Origin: an uncultured archaeon
GTDB lineage: Archaea > Iainarchaeota > Iainarchaeia > Iainarchaeales > GCA-2688035
Length of the DNA: 64,000 nt
NCBI GenBank assembly: GCA_964354805.1
Contig: CAYHBD010000042.1
Span: 1 to 64,000, forward strand
Direction: 5' to 3'
Shown in pieces: positions 32,258 to 53,950 of this stretch. How positions within the stretch are numbered: position 1 is the first letter of the stretch; the number at the start of each line of letters is the position of its first letter. Under the pieces are notes generated by a model that saw only the letters and a program-made list of their open reading frames with translations, did no database searches and was not told the origin of the DNA. The position numbers and the translations under genes are program-made.

Positions 32258-32377
32258 TGGGCCCGGAGAGACTCGAACTCTCGACCCTTGGTGCGCTAAC
32301 AGGGCAACAAGATGCCGAAATGAATTCACTCATCACCCTGCTATAAGACCAATGCTCTGCCGCTAAGCTACGGGCCC
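32258..32377 (-). tRNA. tRNA-Ile (anticodon UAU) with a 48-nt intron at 37/38 (32294-32341)
   Basis: GGGCCCG/CGGGCCC-A acceptor, TTGGT/ACCAA anticodon stem, loop CT-TAT-A, TTCGAGT T-loop; BHB with outer helix CAGGG/CCCTG; CCA not encoded. Confidence 0.92.
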
Positions 32378-39044: not shown

Positions 39045-39116
39045 GTGCGGCTCAGTTCGCCCATCTTTCTTCATTGCCGAAGCTCAGTGTCATCGTCAGA
39101 TCGCTCATTGCCGCAC
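39045..39116 (-). ncRNA. Box C/D guide sRNA
   Basis: 7-bp terminal stem GTGCGGC/GCCGCAC, degenerate C (ATGAGCGA), D' CTGA, GC-TTCG-GC spacer, C' ATGAAGA, 12-nt guide, D CTGA. Confidence 0.75.
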
Positions 39117-39236: not shown

Positions 39237-40253
39237 TCAAAATGGTTTTTTTATTGCGCCGACTGCCAGCGCATAGTAGTAGAATTCGCCCCATAGTTCA
39301 AAGTATTTTACTGGCTTTTCCTCCAGTTCTGAATAGTTTATTATGAATTCCTTGAATGCAAGCCATTTTTGCCTGTGCTCAGCCGACTCTTTTGTTTCAA
39401 ACAGCCAGTAGAAAAACTTGTAGGCTATTTTTCCAAAATAGCAGTAGTAAAGAACCTGAATTGCAAGATATGCGATAACCACTAGCGTCAATAAGAGTGC
39501 TAACAACTGCGTTTGAATGAAAACAATGTTCTGCATGAAAAAGAATATTGCGGCAATCGGCAGGATAACCAAGATGCCGAACGCAAAAAACAGCAGCTGC
39601 AATTTTATAATTTGCCAGATTATTTCTTTTGCCAGAAATTTTTTTTCAACCGTTGAACGGTTGATTTTGCTTAAGCTGATGAAGTAAATTATCAAGAACG
39701 GCACAGCCAGCATTACCAGCAATAGCAGCAACATCGCAATTGCCACGGCAATTGTGTCTTTGATTGCGAAAAGCAGGAATGGAATTAGAATTTGGAACGG
39801 GGCTGAAACCATTGAACTGATAATTGAAAGGGCAAGGGAGGCTATGAAACCGAATGCTATAAAGCCAATGCTGCTTTTTGGCTTGAATCCAAAAGCCGAA
39901 CCGAATTTGTTTGCCGTACTTTCGATTACAAGTGTTTCATACTTTTTTACAATTTTATCCAAATCAGAAAACTGCACTTTCGCATTTTCGCCTTGCTTAT
40001 TTTTTTCAAAGAACTGCCAGAGGAAAACCTCGTTGTAGTTCAGGTCGGTGTTATTTTTTAGTTTCAGCTCAAAACCATCAGCAAAATATTGCTCCACTTC
40101 CAGTTTTCCTTTTTTTGCAAGATGCAGAATGTCGGCAATTATTCCTTTTTTCGTTACCTTGAATGTTGAAAGATATTCCGCTACCGAAGGCCTGTACGAA
40201 AAAGGCGGTTCTATATAGAAATCTTCATTTTTAAGGTTTGACGTTTCTTCCAT
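39237..40253 (-). CDS. DUF2207-like membrane protein
   Basis: PP...P...YL...IIADILHLAKKG.L, TM block, KWLAFKEFI...WGEFYYYALAVG. Confidence 0.75.
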   Translation of the reverse strand: MEETSNLKNEDFYIEPPFSYRPSVAEYLSTFKVTKKGIIADILHLAKKGKLEVEQYFADGFELKLKNNTDLNYNEVFLWQFFEKNKQGENAKVQFSDLDKIVKKYETLVIESTANKFGSAFGFKPKSSIGFIAFGFIASLALSIISSMVSAPFQILIPFLLFAIKDTIAVAIAMLLLLLVMLAVPFLIIYFISLSKINRSTVEKKFLAKEIIWQIIKLQLLFFAFGILVILPIAAIFFFMQNIVFIQTQLLALLLTLVVIAYLAIQVLYYCYFGKIAYKFFYWLFETKESAEHRQKWLAFKEFIINYSELEEKPVKYFELWGEFYYYALAVGAIKKPF

Positions 40254-40307
40254 AAAAAAAAACCATTTAAAGTCCTTATCAAACGTGCATCAATTTATAA
40301 GTGTTTT

Positions 40308-41048
40308 TTGGAATTAAATATCTTTCGGGTTGCAATGCAATGCCAAAGAGAGGGCGGTTCAGTGCTAAAAGGAAAAAAAGTCCGGCCTGAAACTCGGTTT
40401 TTTGCAGTAATAACAGGCTTGTTTGTTGCAGTGCTGCTTATTTCAAACGCTGCTTCAACAAAAATAGTTGATTTGGGGATTTTTGTTTTCGACGGCGGAA
40501 CACTGCTTTTTCCCTTATCATACATTTTCGGCGACATTTTGACAGAGGTTTACGGCTACAGGAAAGCAAGGCAGGTTATCTGGACTGGCTTCTTTTCAGC
40601 TGCGCTCATGTCTGCTGTTTTTGCAGTTGTCGGCTTTCTGCCTGCAGCAAAAGGCTGGGAAAACCAGGCAGCATATGATGCGATTCTTGGCATGGTTCCG
40701 AGGATTGTTATTGCTTCACTTATCGCGTATTTTGCAGGAGAGTTCTCAAACAGCTTTGTGCTTGCCAAAATGAAAATAATCACTAAAGGAAAAATGCTTT
40801 GGGCGAGAACAATCGGCAGCACTGTTGTAGGCGAGGGCGTTGACACAATGCTTTTTGCAACAATCGCTTTCTATGGAACGCTGCCAGCTGAAATTTTCAT
40901 TGCATTGGTTGCCTCAAACTATGTTTTCAAGGTAGGCGTTGAAGTGATTTTCACGCCCTTAACATACAAAATAGTGAATTTCCTCAAAAAAGCGGAAGGC
41001 GTTGACGTTTTCGATTTCAAAACAAACTTCAACCCATTCAAGTTATAG
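40308..41048 (+). CDS. yhhQ: Queuosine-precursor transporter (YhhQ/VUT family)
   Basis: LLISN...K...GGTLLFPLSYIFGDILTEVYG, PRIVIASLIAY, RTIGST.VGE..DT; real start probably downstream of 40308. Confidence 0.9.
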   Translation: MELNIFRVAMQCQREGGSVLKGKKVRPETRFFAVITGLFVAVLLISNAASTKIVDLGIFVFDGGTLLFPLSYIFGDILTEVYGYRKARQVIWTGFFSAALMSAVFAVVGFLPAAKGWENQAAYDAILGMVPRIVIASLIAYFAGEFSNSFVLAKMKIITKGKMLWARTIGSTVVGEGVDTMLFATIAFYGTLPAEIFIALVASNYVFKVGVEVIFTPLTYKIVNFLKKAEGVDVFDFKTNFNPFKL

Positions 41049-41169
41049 CATTGCGCCGTTTGCTGCAGCTATAAAAAACAAAAAAATTCAGGCAATTGCA
41101 ATTTTCAGCCCAGGGCTTTTGAGCTGAAAGACAGATGCAATGCCAAAAAAATTCAGGCAACTGCAATGT

Positions 41170-42114
41170 TCAGCCAAGCGCTTTTGAGCTGAAAGAGGCG
41201 ATCAGGAAAACAATATACAGCAGTATGAAAATAATGCCCTGCCTTTTGCCTATGCCCTCGTGCTTTACAAGGGAGTATACAAGAAAAGTGTTTGCAATAA
41301 CCACAAAGCATATTCCGACAGTGAACGCTGAAAGGCTTATTCTGATCGGGTTTATAACCAAAACACTTCCAAGCACAAGCGTCAGGTTCACTACACTGCT
41401 GCCTAAAATGTCGCCTATTGCCAGGGCAATCTGCCCTCTCCTTATTGCGGCAAAATCAACGGCTAGCTCAGGCAGTGTTGTGCCGAAGGAAACAAGCGTA
41501 AGACCGATTACTGCCTCGCTGAAGCCTATTGCCAAGGCAATTTCCTTGCCGCTCCCTACCACAAAATAGCTGCTTAAAACAACGATTGCAAGGGATAGAA
41601 AGAACATCAAGACAACCTTTCCTCTCTCACGCCTCGGTATCCCATCGCGCAGGTGCAGTGTAAACCTTTCTTTCATCGTGAAAAAGCAGTAAATTAAAAA
41701 CAGCAGCAGCAAAACAAGCCCTTCCCCTCTCCCGAGCGTTCCAAGGATGAGGAAAATCATTGGAACAGCGCCGATTAGCAGCAGCAGCTCTGCGCTGTCC
41801 AAAACGTGCCTCCTTTCAACATCAATCCTTCTGATAAGGGTCGCTATTCCGAGAACAAGGCAGATGTTTGCAACAGTGCTGCCCAAAGCATCGCCGATTC
41901 CAAGCTCCGGGCTGCCTGTGCCAGCCGAAATAACCGAAACAACCAGGTCAGGCATGGAAACCGTTATTGCAACCAGAATGAAGCCAATCGCAAGCTGCGA
42001 AATGCCGTAATGCTCGGATAGCTTTATGCTGTTGTTGATTACCACCCTGCTGCTTAATATAAGCACGGCGAGCGAAATGCAGAAAACCAAAATGGAGAAA
42101 AACAATGAAACCAC
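41170..42114 (-). CDS. Na+/Ca2+ antiporter (CaCA, YrbG-like)
   Basis: Alpha repeats VSMPD...GDALGSTVAN and GTTLPE...GDILGSSVVN. Confidence 0.9.
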   Translation of the reverse strand: MVSLFFSILVFCISLAVLILSSRVVINNSIKLSEHYGISQLAIGFILVAITVSMPDLVVSVISAGTGSPELGIGDALGSTVANICLVLGIATLIRRIDVERRHVLDSAELLLLIGAVPMIFLILGTLGRGEGLVLLLLFLIYCFFTMKERFTLHLRDGIPRRERGKVVLMFFLSLAIVVLSSYFVVGSGKEIALAIGFSEAVIGLTLVSFGTTLPELAVDFAAIRRGQIALAIGDILGSSVVNLTLVLGSVLVINPIRISLSAFTVGICFVVIANTFLVYSLVKHEGIGKRQGIIFILLYIVFLIASFSSKALG

Positions 42115-42307
42115 CAGGTTAGACAGCTAATTCAAACAAACAAAAAGCATAAATAATTAGCCTACCAGCGCTGGTCAAAAAAAACAATCAAAAAAATAAT
42201 TAACCAACAAAAAAAATGCCGAAAACAAAACAAAAAATAATCAAAAAAATAGAAATAAATAATTAGCTTGCCAGAAATTGGCTAAAGTGAGTCGTGAGCT
42301 CAACTGT

Positions 42308-42529
42308 TCAGGGCTGCATTGTCAGGAAGTAAACAGCTGCCTTGCTTTTTGCAACCCTTTTGACAACCTTTTTGTTTTGCAACTGCATCAGAATGTTGTT
42401 GACCATGCCTTTTGAAAAGGGGCACTTGCCTGAAATGATGTCCGCTGTCTTCGCATTGCCTTCCTCTGATGCGCCGATTTCCCGCATTGCTTCAACAACC
42501 TTCTTTTCATTGTCGTTCAATTCAACCAT
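42308..42529 (-). CDS. Small winged-helix DNA-binding protein
   Basis: 73 aa, LNDNEKKVVEAM...KTADII...KGMVNNILMQL..K.VVKR...YFL; SD GGTGA. Confidence 0.75.
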   Translation of the reverse strand: MVELNDNEKKVVEAMREIGASEEGNAKTADIISGKCPFSKGMVNNILMQLQNKKVVKRVAKSKAAVYFLTMQP

Positions 42530-42589
42530 GCGTTCTCACCATGCTAAAATTGTTTTATCAAAAATAGGTTCGCTTTCCGCACCCAGCTG

Positions 42590-42967
42590 CTATGCTTCAA
42601 TTATTTTCTTTAGGTCAACTTTCCTTATGCCAAGCTCAAGGCAGCCTGCTGCCTTGCCGCTTATCAGCTGCCCTGCCTTTGGAGTAAAGCCAGTGCTGCT
42701 GACTGAAACCCTCACGATTATTGTAAAGCCGCTTTCCTTTGTTCTCTGGATTTTTCCGCTTATTGCATCCAGTTCAAATTGCTGCTTGAAAAGAGTCCTG
42801 TTAACGCTGCCCTTCTGCTCGTGCGAAATTATCTCAAATTCCTTTATTTTCCCGCAGCCGCTTTCAATAAAACCATAGTCAATTGCCTTGTCCTTCGCCA
42901 GCTTTTCAAGCGCTGGAATTATGTCGCTTCCGTCATTCAGTTTCAGAATCAAAGTCTGTTCAGCCAA
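42590..42967 (-). CDS. PPC/DUF296 domain protein
   Basis: TTG start after GGGGGTG; ILKLNDGSDIIPALE...G.G...FELDAISG.I...AGQL.SG. Confidence 0.75.
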   Translation of the reverse strand: MAEQTLILKLNDGSDIIPALEKLAKDKAIDYGFIESGCGKIKEFEIISHEQKGSVNRTLFKQQFELDAISGKIQRTKESGFTIIVRVSVSSTGFTPKAGQLISGKAAGCLELGIRKVDLKKIIEA

Positions 42968-43167
42968 ACAAAACACCCCCACAAAGGGAACTAAACCCAT
43001 CCCCAAAATGAGGCATAGGTCAGGCATTTGCTAGTATCAGTCAAGCCGCCACAGCAAAAAGCTGCCACGCCTTAAATCTATACTGCCTGCAAGCAGTATT
43101 TAAATATTATGCAAGGCAGACTTTGCTGATTGAAGATTTAAAATCTGATGCGTTTTTCATTGTGTAA

Positions 43168-47271: not shown

Positions 47272-47378
47272 GCATCCTGGGCAATTTGCGAATTAATTCA
47301 ATCGTTAATGATTTGCAGGTCAAGCAAAAATTTTGCTCCAGTTTCTCGGCTGCCTTCGCTGCCAAATGCCAACGCCAT

Positions 47379-48413
47379 TCAGCAAAAAATTTTGCTCCAG
47401 TTTCTCGGCTGCCTTTTTCTCCAATCGCCTTTGTGGAAAACATAGCTTGCTATCAGCGGCAGAACGCTGGTTGCTTCAGCGTAAACCATTTGCTCCTGCT
47501 TTGCTTCAACCTTGCCCCAGCTGCTTGCCTCCTTGAAGGTTGAGCTGCTGCATCCGCCGTCCCTTACGTCTGCAACGGTTATCTGCACGCTGTATTTGTG
47601 CATTGGGACATTTTTTCCAAGGACCTCGGCGCAGATGACAGTGTCCTGCGCAAAGTTTTTTGGAACTCCGCCCCCTACAATGAACAAGCCTGAAACAGGG
47701 GCCTGCATTTTTATTTTGGTCAATTCCATGAAATCCTTGACTGAATCAATTGCTATGTGCGCTTCTTTCCTTTGCCACTGGTGTGCAACCAATCCAAGGC
47801 CTGCGCTGCTGTCGCTAAAAGCAGGGCAGAATATCGGCACATTGTGCTTATATGCTGTCTGAATCAGCGAGCCTTTTTTCTTTGCATGTTTTTGGAGATA
47901 TTTGCCCATTTCTGCAATGAATTCTCTTGAACTGTAAGGTATTGGCTCAAGTGCATCAGCAATCTTTTTAATTGCCATGTCACAGTGCTGCAATTGCTGT
48001 TCATCAATGTAAGTGTCATATATTCTGTCAATGTAAAGCCGCCTGAGCTTTCTGTCGTCAACGTGTGGGCTGCCTTTATAATGCCTGAAGCCGAGTGCTT
48101 CAAAGAAATCCATGTCAACGATTGTTGCGCCTGTTGCAACAATTGCGTCAACCATATTATACTTTACCAAGTCAGGGTAAATCTGCATGCATCCTGCAGC
48201 TGAGGTGCTGCCTGCAATGCAAAGGATTATGGTGCAGCCTTTGTCGGCAATCATTCTGTTGAAAATGTCTGCTGCATTCGCCACTTCCCTCGATGTGAAG
48301 GACATGTTTCGCATTGCGTTGATTATTGGCGTTGAATCAAATTTGGTTATGTCAATGTGCTGGACAGGCTCACGCAGAAACTGCTTTTTCTCAGCCGCGT
48401 TTATTTTAGACAT
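47379..48413 (-). CDS. Second deoxyhypusine synthase-like protein (bacterial DHS-like type)
   Basis: From ATG 48413: AGSTSAAG, IDRIYD, PAFSDSSAG, GGGVPKNF, DGGCSSST.KEASSWGK. Confidence 0.9.
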   Translation of the reverse strand: MSKINAAEKKQFLREPVQHIDITKFDSTPIINAMRNMSFTSREVANAADIFNRMIADKGCTIILCIAGSTSAAGCMQIYPDLVKYNMVDAIVATGATIVDMDFFEALGFRHYKGSPHVDDRKLRRLYIDRIYDTYIDEQQLQHCDMAIKKIADALEPIPYSSREFIAEMGKYLQKHAKKKGSLIQTAYKHNVPIFCPAFSDSSAGLGLVAHQWQRKEAHIAIDSVKDFMELTKIKMQAPVSGLFIVGGGVPKNFAQDTVICAEVLGKNVPMHKYSVQITVADVRDGGCSSSTFKEASSWGKVEAKQEQMVYAEATSVLPLIASYVFHKGDWRKRQPRNWSKIFC

Positions 48414-49604: not shown

Positions 49605-49743
49605 ACAAGGCTGGCAGTAATGAGTTCCTGTTTGAAAAAAAGTGCTTTCTAAGGCTACGGCAGTGCAATTTAATGCCCCAAAGCCATAAAGAAACTAATA
49701 TATACCCCATCGGATTTAATAGTTTCAAAAAAATGGGTTTGAA

Positions 49744-50205
49744 ATGAGTAGGTTAATTGTAGGCGTTACGTGTTTCATTGCTTTGGCTGTTTTTCTTAGC
49801 GGCTGCATTGACGGCAAGCAGATTCTATTCAAGGAAATTCCGGGCGCCATTGTTCCATCACCTTGCGAGTCATTCGCCAGAGAGCATATATGTGCCTTGT
49901 TCAAGTGCATGGTTGACAGCTGCTGGTGCGATGAAGGCAGCATTCCAAGCCCGATTTTGGAGGAGCCCAGTGCTGTTGGCAGTTTTATTGGGGCAGGCAC
50001 AGCCGCCATTAAAAGCGATCAGGACGCGATAGCAGCCGTCCAGCGGTATGTGCAAAGAACTGGTTCAGAGTACAGTGATGTCAGGAGGGCAGTGAAGCTG
50101 AATAATGTTTTCTGGAACGTGTTTGCATTCAATTCGGAAAACGATGAAACGGTTTTCACTGTTGCGGCAGACGGCACAATTCTGAAAACTGTTTGCGGTG
50201 TCTGA
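49744..50205 (+). CDS. Cys-rich lipoprotein
   Basis: Lipobox-like FLSGC; several Cys. Confidence 0.7.
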   Translation: MSRLIVGVTCFIALAVFLSGCIDGKQILFKEIPGAIVPSPCESFAREHICALFKCMVDSCWCDEGSIPSPILEEPSAVGSFIGAGTAAIKSDQDAIAAVQRYVQRTGSEYSDVRRAVKLNNVFWNVFAFNSENDETVFTVAADGTILKTVCGV

Positions 50206-50286: not shown

Positions 50287-50961
50287 ATGAAATTGAAGAT
50301 TTTGATTGCTCTTCTTGTTTTATGCACGCTGGTTCTCGGCGGCTGCCTGCAAAGCGAACAGGCAGGCGGTACAGGCGAGCCTGCTGGTGCTGCTGGTGAA
50401 GAGGCAAATGGCGCAAACGAGCCGGCTGGCGGTGCAGGCGAACAAACAGATGGCACTGCCGAAACACTTGGCGTTGGCGAGTGGGCTGTGGAAATAAAAA
50501 GCGCAATAACTTTGACACCTGAACACAAAATAACAGAAACGGTATACGAGGACCTTAAGTCCGTTGATGATGTCAGGTTTGAAATTACCAGTAATTGCGG
50601 GAAAACATCAGACAAGCTTTTCAAGTTCGAGCCTGAACACAAAATAGTCATGAAAGTAGTGGATGCACAGGGGGAAAAGACAAAGTTTTATACTCATGCG
50701 TATAAGGAGGCTTCCAACAGGGAATTCGTTGACGAAATGGAAGTAAAGATAAGGCTGTATCACCAAGACGTGCCAAGCTTTGCCTGGATGGATATCGGAG
50801 AGGACGGCTTCATAAGGGAGTCATACGAAGCTTACCCTTCAACTAACTCTTTTTACAATCCTGCAATAGCAGCAAATGCATCAGGCCTAAAGCTGAGGCT
50901 GGAAATTGTTGATACTGAAACAGGCCAGACACTCGCCTTCGGCGAGTACACTTTGGCATAG
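50287..50961 (+). CDS. Lipoprotein with Gly/Glu linker
   Basis: Lipobox-like LGGC; AGGTGEPAG repeats. Confidence 0.75.
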   Translation: MKLKILIALLVLCTLVLGGCLQSEQAGGTGEPAGAAGEEANGANEPAGGAGEQTDGTAETLGVGEWAVEIKSAITLTPEHKITETVYEDLKSVDDVRFEITSNCGKTSDKLFKFEPEHKIVMKVVDAQGEKTKFYTHAYKEASNREFVDEMEVKIRLYHQDVPSFAWMDIGEDGFIRESYEAYPSTNSFYNPAIAANASGLKLRLEIVDTETGQTLAFGEYTLA

Positions 50962-51027
50962 GGCAATCCCGAGAATTGAAGCCCGCCAGCCAAAAGCATT
51001 AAGCAATAATCTCTATACATTACAGTA

Positions 51028-51044
51028 GGCGATGATGAGGTTAA
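51028..51044 (+). repeat. 5' fragment of the C/D sRNA at 52532
   Basis: Exact 17-nt GGCGATGATGAGGTTAA. Confidence 0.75.
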
Positions 51045-51093
51045 TCTCTTACTGGAGCAAGGCTTTAATATATGTGCAATTAATTGTTTTATT

Positions 51094-52392
51094 ATGAAAA
51101 GTGAAAAACTTATCTTATTTTCAGTTTGTATTGCAGTCTTTCTTATTTGTGGGTGCGTGAACCCGCCAAACAATGAGGTTTTGACTCCACCAGGCAAGGC
51201 CGTTTCTGTTTCTGATTTTGCAAAATGCCTTACTGAAAAAGGCGTGACGGTTTATGGTTTCGGCACTAGCTGGTGCACGTTTTGCACTGAACAGGAAAAA
51301 ATGTTTGGCAATGCATGGAAAGACCTGAATTATATTGAGTGTTCAATATCCGAAAACTTTAATGAACAGAGCGAATTGTGCAACAAAGCGGGAATAAGGG
51401 GTTATCCTACTTGGGTGTTAAAGGGCGGCGAAAAAATCGAAGGAACGTTTTCTTTTGACGTATTAAGCCAGCGAACCGGCTGCCCAGCGCCCACAATACC
51501 AAGTCAGCCTAACACAACAGACTTGAATAACGAAGTTCCTGTCGTAAATAACCAGCAATTAAAATTTGACGTAGTACAACCATTACCAGCGGGAACAGTA
51601 GGCGAGCAATACAATTATTCATTCTGCAAGCCAGACTTGACTTCAGCAAGCGACCTTTGCGCAGGAAGCGAAATAACAAATCCTTCGGGAGGAAACCCGC
51701 CATATCATTTTGTTCTGGATTCTGGAGCGTTTGCCCCAATGGGCCTTTCTTTAAACTTGAACGGGCTTTTGAGTGGAAAGCCCACAACCGAGGGAGAAAG
51801 CACTTTTAGTGTCTGTGCTGTTGACCAATCAGGCACGCAAACATGCAAGCAAGTCACATTAGGCATTAGTCAAGCTGTTGCAAAACCAGAAACTTGGACA
51901 GGCAAAATGACAGGCACTTATACAAGAGAATCTCTGCTTGGCGGCGGCGAGTACGGTTATGATTTTAGCGTGAGTTTTACTGTCCCAAAAAGCATAATTG
52001 CTAACTTCAAGGACCCGGCGAATACTGACGACTGGATTGATATTAAAAAAACAAGCGGAACTATTGCTGAGACGACTACTGTCTTACAGCAGTTGGATAC
52101 AACAAATAATCCCGGTGACTTAATGGTTGGAGGTTCACTTAACGAACCAATTCAAGTAGGAGTTGCAGGAAGCGTTTACCAGGCAAACGGAATATTTTTT
52201 GTTTCACCGACTGGCAAAGAGCTTATTGCGGGTTATTTGCAAAGAGATGGCGCACCGTTTTCCGATAGTCGCTGGAGCGATATAAAGCTAACTGTTACTA
52301 ATTACACTGACACAACCATTACAGGCACGTGGGGCACAGGTTTGTTTGGGGAACTGGTAGCACACGGAACCTTCACTCTCAACAAGCAATAA
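51094..52392 (+). CDS. Lipoprotein: glutaredoxin/thioredoxin-like domain plus putative Ig domain
   Basis: ICGC lipobox; FAKCLTEKG...WCTFC..Q..MFG...YIEC...GIRGYPTW; LPAGTVGEQY...GGNPPY...GLSL..GLLSGKPT. Confidence 0.8.
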   Translation: MKSEKLILFSVCIAVFLICGCVNPPNNEVLTPPGKAVSVSDFAKCLTEKGVTVYGFGTSWCTFCTEQEKMFGNAWKDLNYIECSISENFNEQSELCNKAGIRGYPTWVLKGGEKIEGTFSFDVLSQRTGCPAPTIPSQPNTTDLNNEVPVVNNQQLKFDVVQPLPAGTVGEQYNYSFCKPDLTSASDLCAGSEITNPSGGNPPYHFVLDSGAFAPMGLSLNLNGLLSGKPTTEGESTFSVCAVDQSGTQTCKQVTLGISQAVAKPETWTGKMTGTYTRESLLGGGEYGYDFSVSFTVPKSIIANFKDPANTDDWIDIKKTSGTIAETTTVLQQLDTTNNPGDLMVGGSLNEPIQVGVAGSVYQANGIFFVSPTGKELIAGYLQRDGAPFSDSRWSDIKLTVTNYTDTTITGTWGTGLFGELVAHGTFTLNKQ

Positions 52393-52531
52393 TAGGAAAA
52401 TGCAAAAACTTCCAATACAAATGATGGTTAATAAAAGGATAAAAAGCGCCAATTGAAATCATCCTCAGACTCATCAAAAGCCAGAAAAAGTAAGGCATAA
52501 GAAAATAAATTGTAACACCTATAAGCTAAAT

Positions 52532-52595
52532 TGGCGATGATGAGGTTAACACCATCCGAGCGCAAGCTGTGAGGAGACAACTCAACACTGAGCCA
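52532..52595 (+). ncRNA. Box C/D guide sRNA (complete copy)
   Basis: TGGC/GCCA stem, C ATGATGA, 12-nt guide, D' CCGA, GC-GCAA-GC, C' GTGAGGA, 12-nt guide, D CTGA. Confidence 0.85.
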
Positions 52596-52641
52596 CATTC
52601 GATTTCATTCCAAGATTTTTAGGCAGCCGTCTTTTAATCGG

Positions 52642-53265
52642 TTATTCGATTATAATCACTTCACCGTCTCTCAGAGTTTTAAACGGAATCTTATTTTTAT
52701 TGCAATATTCAACTTCTTTGTCAATGTCTGCGGACTCAGGATGGTTAGATTTATAGTGCGGGAGAATAATGTAATCAAGGACTCCAAGGCCTTCCCAAAT
52801 TGTTTTCTGAAGCTCTTGGTAAGGCCTGTCATTGGGGTCGTCAACAATTTGCAGTGCCTTGAAATCAGGAGCCAACACGCATATGCCGGCACTATATCCT
52901 GCATACACAAAATCGTTTCTTTTAAGAAGCTCTTTAAAAATTACGTCAAAACCACTCAATTTCATTGCCTGTCGCAGAATAAATGTATTTCCTCCTCGGA
53001 CGAATATGCCTCCAAATTCATTCAATTTTTTCCGCAATTCATCAGTCTTTCCAAAAAAATTCTTTAAATCAAGGTATTCTACGGTTAAGCCCAACCCTTC
53101 CAAACTTTCAATATCCAGTTTTTCCCACCTGTTTTTCTTGACCCAATCAACATTAGAATAATCACAGGCGTTTGGAATGTAAGCAATTTTTTTGTTGTTG
53201 GGCATTAGCCCGGCTAACTCGCCAGCCTTATTCCCCAGCCTAAAAGAGGACAAATAAAACTTCAT
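52642..53265 (-). CDS. Peptidase E (family S51)
   Basis: YIPNA, GGNTF, GYSAG (nucleophile Ser), PHY. Confidence 0.9.
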   Translation of the reverse strand: MKFYLSSFRLGNKAGELAGLMPNNKKIAYIPNACDYSNVDWVKKNRWEKLDIESLEGLGLTVEYLDLKNFFGKTDELRKKLNEFGGIFVRGGNTFILRQAMKLSGFDVIFKELLKRNDFVYAGYSAGICVLAPDFKALQIVDDPNDRPYQELQKTIWEGLGVLDYIILPHYKSNHPESADIDKEVEYCNKNKIPFKTLRDGEVIIIE

Positions 53266-53321
53266 ATAAAAACCAGTTCATCGAGGTTATTAAAACCTAT
53301 AAGTATTCTTAGTTTTAATAG

Positions 53322-53372
53322 GGTTAACACCGTCTGACCGAAAGGTGTGAAGATTTAACTCAACACTGAGCC
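53322..53372 (+). repeat. Diverged 3' three-quarters of the C/D sRNA (box C lost)
   Basis: GGTTAACACCGT-CTGA-CCGAAAGG-TGTGAAGA-TTTAACTCAACA-CTGA-GCC. Confidence 0.8.
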
Positions 53373-53408
53373 GCTTTTAAGTTAGAACTATATGTGAGTG
53401 CAATAATA

Positions 53409-53891
53409 TCAGCGATTGCCACCCAAATCAAGCAGGCGCTGCAATTGCCAATTGCGTTCCCTGGTTACTTTGGCTGCAGCATCAGAGGGGCTGGCGGCTC
53501 TATAAATAGCTTGCAAGGCATAATTTGCAGCACCGATAGAATGAGCGGGAACATGCGCAGTTGCCGCCGCTTGGCCTGCGGCCCTGGCAGCAGAGCAAGC
53601 GGCATTATCTTCCCCTACTTCACGAGCGGCAGCATGAGCATCAAGTGAAGTTTTGCGCACGTCCGGCATCTTGAATATTCCGGTGCGCATCCATTTTCGG
53701 AGGGCTTCAATGGCTTTTCTGGGCCTGTGGTCTTCCGGGTATTTTTCCTCAAAATAGGGAAGAACACGCTCGACACAATCAACCGCCCAGCGTGCCAATG
53801 TTTTATGGTCGGTTTTTCCCACAAGCGCTGCAATTGCCTCGTCTTTGTGCGTAACTGAGAATTTGGATTTTTCCTTCATATTCTCAACCAT
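53409..53891 (-). CDS. Imm-5-like (putative immunity) protein
   Basis: HKTLARWAVDCVERVLP.FE...PED.RPR.AIEA...AHAAAR...AARAAGQAAATAHV..H. Confidence 0.85.
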   Translation of the reverse strand: MVENMKEKSKFSVTHKDEAIAALVGKTDHKTLARWAVDCVERVLPYFEEKYPEDHRPRKAIEALRKWMRTGIFKMPDVRKTSLDAHAAAREVGEDNAACSAARAAGQAAATAHVPAHSIGAANYALQAIYRAASPSDAAAKVTRERNWQLQRLLDLGGNR

Positions 53892-53950
53892 TTATAGGCA
53901 ATTTTTAATGTGTTGTAGTGTTGTTGAGCCAAAAAATAGTTTTGCGCCGG

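Follow-up and report, generated by a model that had tools for sequence, protein, structure and literature searches.

A box C/D guide RNA gene as the probable attachment site of integrase-borne gene modules in Iainarchaeales

Three copies of a guide RNA gene alternate with accessory genes

The window, a 64,000-nucleotide stretch of one contig from an uncultured archaeon of the Iainarchaeales, holds in the gap between its DRG GTPase and P460 genes an array of small RNA (sRNA) gene copies and accessory genes. In the list below, the core is the first 14 bases of the sRNA gene, GGCRATGATGAGGT. Labels beginning with G, C and L stand for genomes, contigs and loci, G000 being this genome.

49613..49626, +: candidate decayed core and possible left edge of the array; 11 of 14 core bases match, right after the stop codon of the DRG GTPase gene
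49744..50205, +: gene for a 153-aa lipoprotein, probable cargo; missing from the DRG-P460 gap of relatives and skipped by a contig of public run X2
50287..50961, +: gene for a 224-aa lipoprotein, probable cargo of the module ending at copy 1; an integrase-type leader follows
50997..51027, +: left half-site of copy 1, a TATA-like motif and a 23-nt leader arm; the leader matches those of elements
51028..51041, +: copy 1, the 14-nt core at the 5' end of the sRNA gene, with the putative 7-nt overlap ATGAGGT at 51035-51041
51042..52532, +: module A, consisting of a right half-site, a Trx/Ig lipoprotein gene (51094-52392) and the leader preceding copy 2
52533..52594, +: copy 2, a complete box C/D sRNA by its boxes, guides and 23S rRNA pairing
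52642..53265, -: peptidase E gene (PepE, Peptidase_S51), cargo, G+C 0.39
53289..53324, +: secondary half-site, an arm with ACCTATAAG and then the decayed overlap ATAGGGT; box C lost
53325..53372, +: copy 3, probably the sRNA body of another allele, without box C
53409..53891, -: Imm5-like gene, variably present; ends without a core

Re-reading of the sequence and BLAST searches placed all three copies where a sequence-only reading of this DNA had put them. Copy 1 (51028-51044) is a 17-nt exact match to the sRNA 5' end (BLAST E 0.007 against the whole genome). Copy 3 (53322-53372) has a body identical to that of copy 2 at 39 of 48 bases and does lack box C, in the place of which stands TTAATAG. 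A single gene indeed separates each pair of copies, encoding a 432-aa lipoprotein with a weak thioredoxin match in one case and a Peptidase_S51/PepE protein in the other. Contigs from two public runs, one of them possibly the source sample, span copy 1 and copy 3 without differences. A strict genome-wide C/D scan returned copy 2 only, yet overlooked two imperfect copies of a second sRNA. One of these lies at 39050-39114 (-) of the window and has an imperfect box C; the other is at G000 C8:48738-48800.

Some details of the earlier reading need revision. The overlap of the copies had been given as GGTTAA, but the common junction stops after GGT, and the overlap would instead be ATGAGGT: of non-sRNA right halves, only ~40% have T as the base 3' of GGT, and relatives with a PepE homolog part from the window directly after GGT. 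The motif ACCTATAAG does begin 27 nt 5' of GGTTAA in copies 2 (52517) and 3 (53295), and is now seen to be a piece of a conserved leader arm. We rejected it as the TATA box of the sRNA, since it lies too near the start; the TATA is ~30 nt before GGC. A compensatory swap of the spacer hairpin between the two copies (GC-GCAA-GC versus CC-GAAA-GG) is likewise present, but is ordinary allele variation among the complete sRNAs of relatives and thus no evidence for a functional copy 3.

Copy 2 is predicted to guide modification of the 23S rRNA A-loop

Judged by its sequence, copy 2 is a real box C/D sRNA. A terminal stem (GGC/GCC) encloses, in order, box C (ATGATGA, 52537-52543), a 12-nt guide (52544-52555), box D' (CCGA), the capped loop GCGCAAGCT, box C' (GTGAGGA), a second 12-nt guide (52576-52587) and box D (CTGA, 52588-52591), so that the archaeal hallmarks of boxes C, D', C' and D, guides of ~12 nt and a terminal stem are all present. 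The guides form duplexes of 10 and 9 nt with the organism's own 23S rRNA, ~29 nt apart. Following the D+5 rule, the D' guide is predicted to aim at the A-loop (Um2552) and the D guide at the 2580 region (Gm2581), where we take U2552 and G2581 to be positions in E. coli numbering.

The sRNA gene was matched in 31 of 41 genomes searched. In a set of sRNAs chosen on this guide with one mismatch allowed, positions 3-11 of the D' guide are kept in 36-37 of 37, and the non-pairing positions vary. Fibrillarin and Nop5 are encoded by adjacent genes on contig C30 of this genome. In its C/D'/C'/D boxes, paired 12-nt guides, 23S targets ~29 nt apart and the presence of fibrillarin and Nop5, copy 2 resembles the archaeal double-guide box C/D sRNAs; it differs from them in matching no Rfam family (no sRNA family was found in the window at the gathering score) and in apparently serving as an attachment site as well. 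No tRNA lies at that site. Elsewhere in the window, at 32258-32377 (-), Rfam finds an intron-containing tRNA that ARAGORN misses. At L016, L028, L018 and L027, the sRNAs are complete and long structured insertions of 30-90 nt separate D' from C'.

The core recurs in arrays of modules across the order

With one mismatch allowed, the core was found in 115 of 196 genomes of Iainarchaeales, up to 14 times per genome; a reversed-pattern control gave mostly 0-1 per genome. Core copies cluster on one strand at distances of 0.4-9 kb (median 1.6 kb over 62 neighbouring pairs), mostly with 1-3 genes between them, and 102 of 135 such genes lie on the core's strand. Most matches (81 of 120) have neither a D box nor a second guide behind them and are hereafter called stubs. 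The number of intact sRNA genes per genome is one in some cases and two in others, and some arrays are without any. The earlier claim that one intact guide is always restored therefore fails, as L035 and L054 hold two complete copies and the arrays in G023 (C1:100-127 kb) and G038 hold none.

On the 5' side of the core stand a TATA-like motif and a leader of ~25 nt, of which there are several types; on the 3' side, ATGAGGT is followed either by the sRNA body or by a leader type in inverted orientation. Across 54 pairs, module starts are similar to the module's own far end when that end is inverted (p 0.0005; for a separately fetched module set alone, p 0.025 ungapped and 0.0006 local) and show no resemblance to the adjacent leader (p 0.81), although these p-values overstate independence because the genomes are related. 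The symmetry of the arms centres on ATGAGGT, the putative overlap. Many modules have unmatched or decayed ends.

Leaders occur in free combination with right halves, the two meeting at the core; one leader type is joined to 19 different right halves, and identical leaders are found across genera. The cargo includes Fic, AbiEii, PemK, AAA_14, glycosyltransferases, transporters, methylases and TBP; no recombinase or transposase is among the cargo families listed (top 25 per set). Both cargo genes between the copies in the window meet the core exactly, and relatives hold the same modules beside other neighbours. The repeated gene capture at an sRNA locus that had been proposed from the window alone is borne out by this survey: cargo varies between relatives and gene order is not fixed, modules swap neighbours exactly at the core, single-copy loci exist (e.g. 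G003, G009), and a dedicated integrase clade lies behind the core (see below).

A different kind of duplication is seen at L049:9582, L054:2547, L051:9799, L050:10641 and L036:13223, where 16-nt copies of the sRNA 3' end lie 78-600 nt downstream, often behind a hairpin; no integrase was seen there.

One clade of tyrosine integrases is linked to the core

Tyrosine integrases linked to the core form one clade with a support of 100/100. Its 15 members comprise 11 with a core upstream, two at contig edges and two without a core, that is, 11 of 13 that could be scored. The integrase gene starts ~80 nt behind the core (78-85 nt in ten of the 11). Of 32 integrases that fall outside the clade, none has a core upstream; judged by eye, about a dozen of these lie behind tRNA-like 3' ends. 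The tree omitted sequences of < 230 aa, and we draw no order of events from it because XerA groups oddly inside it (long branches). Metagenome contigs point the same way: among seven close integrase matches with upstream DNA, five have the sRNA core and the other two the core of a second sRNA, and further cases of an integrase behind the core were found. Clade proteins are ~430 aa long, belong to Phage_integrase and conserve the catalytic residues R-K-H-R-W-Y.

Only ~12 of 196 genomes encode a clade member. This assembly, 88.5% complete, has none, its best match being XerA (E 1.8e-17). Viral contigs gave 55 core matches, none carrying a leader, and no relative of the core-linked integrase.

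Four complete elements of 6-12.6 kb were recovered, with inverted ends that match at 17-19 of 24 positions, versus 8-13 of 24 for the neighbouring leader. Those of G015 and G170 end in a complete sRNA preceded by the element's own leader and candidate promoter region; in both, the target direct repeat is present at either end and an intact gene is restored. The G122 element ends in a decayed sRNA and the G105 element in a secondary site. Type III restriction-modification genes are among the element cargo, as is a terminase in one case. None of the 11 core-linked integrase genes follows the short arm type (12-nt spacer) that is common on small modules. A 435-aa tyrosine integrase does occur in this genome at C10:30700-31800 (L034), downstream of a tRNA-like 3' end and outside the sRNA clade.

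A second guide RNA gene carries similar arrays

Partial copies are found at one other sRNA gene. This second C/D sRNA, whose guides are directed at 16S helix 34 and the C1402 region, likewise has arrays of stubs. In two cases its core is followed by a close homolog of the clade integrase, and a more distant member at this core carries conjugation-type genes. At L346 (G113:C15:1829-3366), the 3' end of a complete second sRNA is directly followed by an unrelated integrase outside the core clade, with tRNA-like 3' geometry.

The array in the window

Copy 1 has the same leader, base for base, as the right ends of the G015 and G170 elements, which bear an integrase; the upstream lipoprotein genes are therefore probably cargo of an older element. 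Further upstream, a core-like match such as that at 49613 is expected 0.025 times per 140 nt, none lies after the DRG gene in 25 loci of relatives, and the contig of run X2 diverges from the window at 49614. This is suggestive only, and the weak core may mark the left edge of the array or an older element. The start of module A is shared with G006, of another genus (91.6% identity over 335 nt from 51026), where a different leader stands in front. The ends of module A show no clear match (8 of 24, p 0.21), and its exact junction pattern was found in none of the metagenome contigs.

Copy 3 does not simply represent a remnant of the original gene's 3' part. PepE homologs, 82-86% identical, occur in only 3 of 22 family genomes, where they adjoin the second C/D sRNA gene; in two of the three, pepE sits inside an array of second-sRNA stubs. 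The flank of pepE matches G018, G004 and G010 at 81-85% up to ~53327 (in G010 up to 53319), and the overlap of the secondary half-site reads ATGAGGT in relatives. The match runs up to the base following GGT; there all three have GATGAGGT and then different DNA. Because the flank is shared up to GGT and then diverges, we infer that copy 3 is a foreign sRNA allele joined to the secondary half-site beside pepE, the overlap of which has since decayed. A leader weight matrix gives the arm upstream of copy 3 no score, and it is the PepE relatives that provide this link. The body of copy 3 agrees with the complete sRNA of G013 at 41 of 48 bases.

Public-run contigs join leader 1 to other right halves, although these joints are short and may stem from relatives. 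A look for circles and empty sites in the same runs gave one contig joining leader 1 to an sRNA body, probably a relative's, and no circle. The Imm5-like gene is skipped in contigs of runs X1 and X5 (joint 53378-53946).

Relatives usually have the sRNA gene upstream of RNase HII, and in most cases their DRG-P460 gap contains a single gene of ~300 aa; a core is never present there. The ~300-aa gene was not found in this genome and the array occupies the gap, which suggests that the sRNA locus has moved. At the usual position (39240-43000), the window has cargo-type genes and no core or sRNA; these genes, one of them TBP-like, are homologs of modules near the sRNA in G006, G016, G161 and G004. 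Two further cores at C41:293 and 1392 (-), on a 2.4-kb contig of this genome, form a second array and surround small genes that are also found in modules of other genera. Lastly, a perfect 31-nt direct repeat (47326-47356 and 47385-47415) echoes the 3' end of a deoxyhypusine synthase-like gene.

Discussion

Taken together, the sequence comparisons make it very probable that the modules enter by integrase-driven insertion at the 5' end of the U2552-guide sRNA gene. By this mechanism, the 5' end of the gene would be the attB of the clade of ~430-aa tyrosine integrases, and attP would consist of three parts: an arm with promoter and leader, the 14-nt core shared with attB, and the arm again in inverted orientation. 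Crossover by the clade enzyme within or next to ATGAGGT, presumably from a circular intermediate, would place the element downstream of the old promoter and upstream of the sRNA body; its own arm would become the new promoter region of the intact sRNA, and a 14-nt stub would be left upstream with the integrase gene next to it. Repeated insertion and loss of integrases would then give rows of cores separated by 1-3 cargo genes. If stubs also serve as secondary sites, arrays would therefore grow away from the sRNA gene as well. Applied to the window, this would make copy 1 one of the stubs and copy 2 the gene in use; copy 3 would belong to a second allele, joined to the secondary half-site beside pepE. 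Counting against this mechanism are the absence of the clade from this assembly and its presence in only ~12 of 196 genomes, the lack of a clear match between the ends of module A, the unmatched ends of many other modules, the short arm type that no core-linked integrase gene follows, and the position of the array away from the family's usual sRNA locus.

A further question is how integrase-free modules move. One idea, to which we give somewhat less than an even chance, is that they are standard cassettes rather than debris: both arms would be retained, and visiting integrases would act on them in trans, cutting them out and inserting them again either at the sRNA gene or at a core already in place. 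If so, this would be an order-wide, integron-like capture system with double-stranded att sites in guide-RNA genes and a mobile integrase. Alternatively, integrases might have seeded only the first copies, and small modules might now spread by homologous recombination of the conserved leaders and cores after DNA uptake, independently of site-specific catalysis, as could be suspected from the many arrays without an integrase (the majority), the identical leaders across genera and the many unmatched ends. We regard this as unlikely, given that junction identity amounts to only 9-14 nt (~9 nt at pepE), that leaders and right halves swap exactly at the core and that small modules keep matched ends; homologous recombination can nevertheless contribute alongside insertion by the clade integrases.

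That the chromosomal XerA, rather than the linked integrase, recombines the sites, as with elements that exploit Xer/dif, appears improbable. Most family genomes including this one have a XerA-like gene, the arms are short inverted repeats, and G011 even has a second XerA-like gene 5 kb from an array. The core-linked gene, however, belongs to a separate clade that scores below the cut-off of the XerA model (94.9 vs 220 bits), the one-contig genome G038 has cores at several sites far from one another, and the arm spacing varies from 12 to 14 nt, whereas dif sites have a fixed spacer. Ordinary duplication, or independent sRNA paralogs sharing their 5' ends, would suit the loci with two complete sRNAs but has very little to recommend it otherwise: D box and second guide are both missing at 81 of 120 core matches, copy 1 stops after 17 nt, and the integrase linkage and matched ends would go unexplained. 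We give equally little credence to casposon-like or other transposase-driven elements with terminal inverted repeats and target-site duplication. Module ends do resemble terminal inverted repeats around a short direct repeat, but Cas1 is found in 0 of 23 family genomes, no transposase is among the cargo families listed (top 25 per set), and the complete elements bear a tyrosine integrase. TIGR-Tas arrays were also considered and rejected, as the guides here are constant and rRNA-directed and the only Nop domain in the genome is that of Nop5.

For tRNA genes, each of these features has been described: targeting of the 5' half of the gene, replacement of the promoter, insertion in tandem and loss of the integrase (PMC8371274; bioRxiv 10.1101/2020.12.28.424599). 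The pTN3-like integrases of Thermococcales target the 5' half of a tRNA gene, and the element supplies the promoter for expression of the restored gene (PMC8371274). Shared with the present case are the tyrosine integrase, a stable RNA gene whose 5' part contains attB, and a promoter, here a candidate one, supplied by the element; however, the target here is the 14-nt core of a box C/D sRNA gene rather than a tRNA 5' half, and the integrase gene lies whole behind attL, whereas the pTN3-like gene is split by the site. Similarly, in tycheposons and the tRNA islands of Prochlorococcus, repeated insertion leaves partial targets and elements are rarer than islands (bioRxiv 10.1101/2020.12.28.424599). 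Our arrays share these traits and the cargo-bearing tyrosine-integrase elements, but the targets there are bacterial tRNA and tmRNA genes; here the target is the 5' end of a guide-RNA gene, the promoter would be replaced, and small modules have inverted ends that match.

Integrons, including archaeal ones (bioRxiv 10.1101/2022.02.06.479319), are alike in their same-strand rows of 1-3-gene modules with a recurring site, and in toxin-antitoxin, defence and transport cargo. In contrast to IntI, which resides beside attI, the enzyme here is not an IntI (TIGR02249 44.4 bits, cut-off 265) and travels on elements. The crossover would fall at the centre of symmetry and not, as with the attC hairpin, at its base, and no RYYYAAC...GTTRRRY was seen on inspection of the aligned sites. 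A review of archaeal integration targets names tRNA genes, protein genes and intergenic DNA, and leaves sRNA and snoRNA genes unmentioned (PMC8371274); a literature search, with most subscription papers outside its coverage, returned nothing on sRNA or snoRNA targets or on integrons or integrases of this lineage.

The present findings would add a target class to archaeal site-specific integration, with the enzyme clade and the site named. Island finders keyed to tRNA or tmRNA fragments would overlook these arrays. For Iainarchaeales, such arrays seem to be one of the main ways of gaining accessory genes, among them toxin-antitoxin, restriction-modification, transport, glycosyltransferase and TBP genes. 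The rebuilt attP and attB are directly testable. Since relatives of the clade lie at tRNA genes and members at two guide-RNA genes, they offer a natural series for the study of integrase target change. Among the tRNA-linked integrases, those at L185-L187, L215 and L220 are preceded, in the stretch from the TATA box to the start codon, by inverted repeats of the CTATAG type, which resemble the arms of the sRNA sites and are possibly integrase binding sites.
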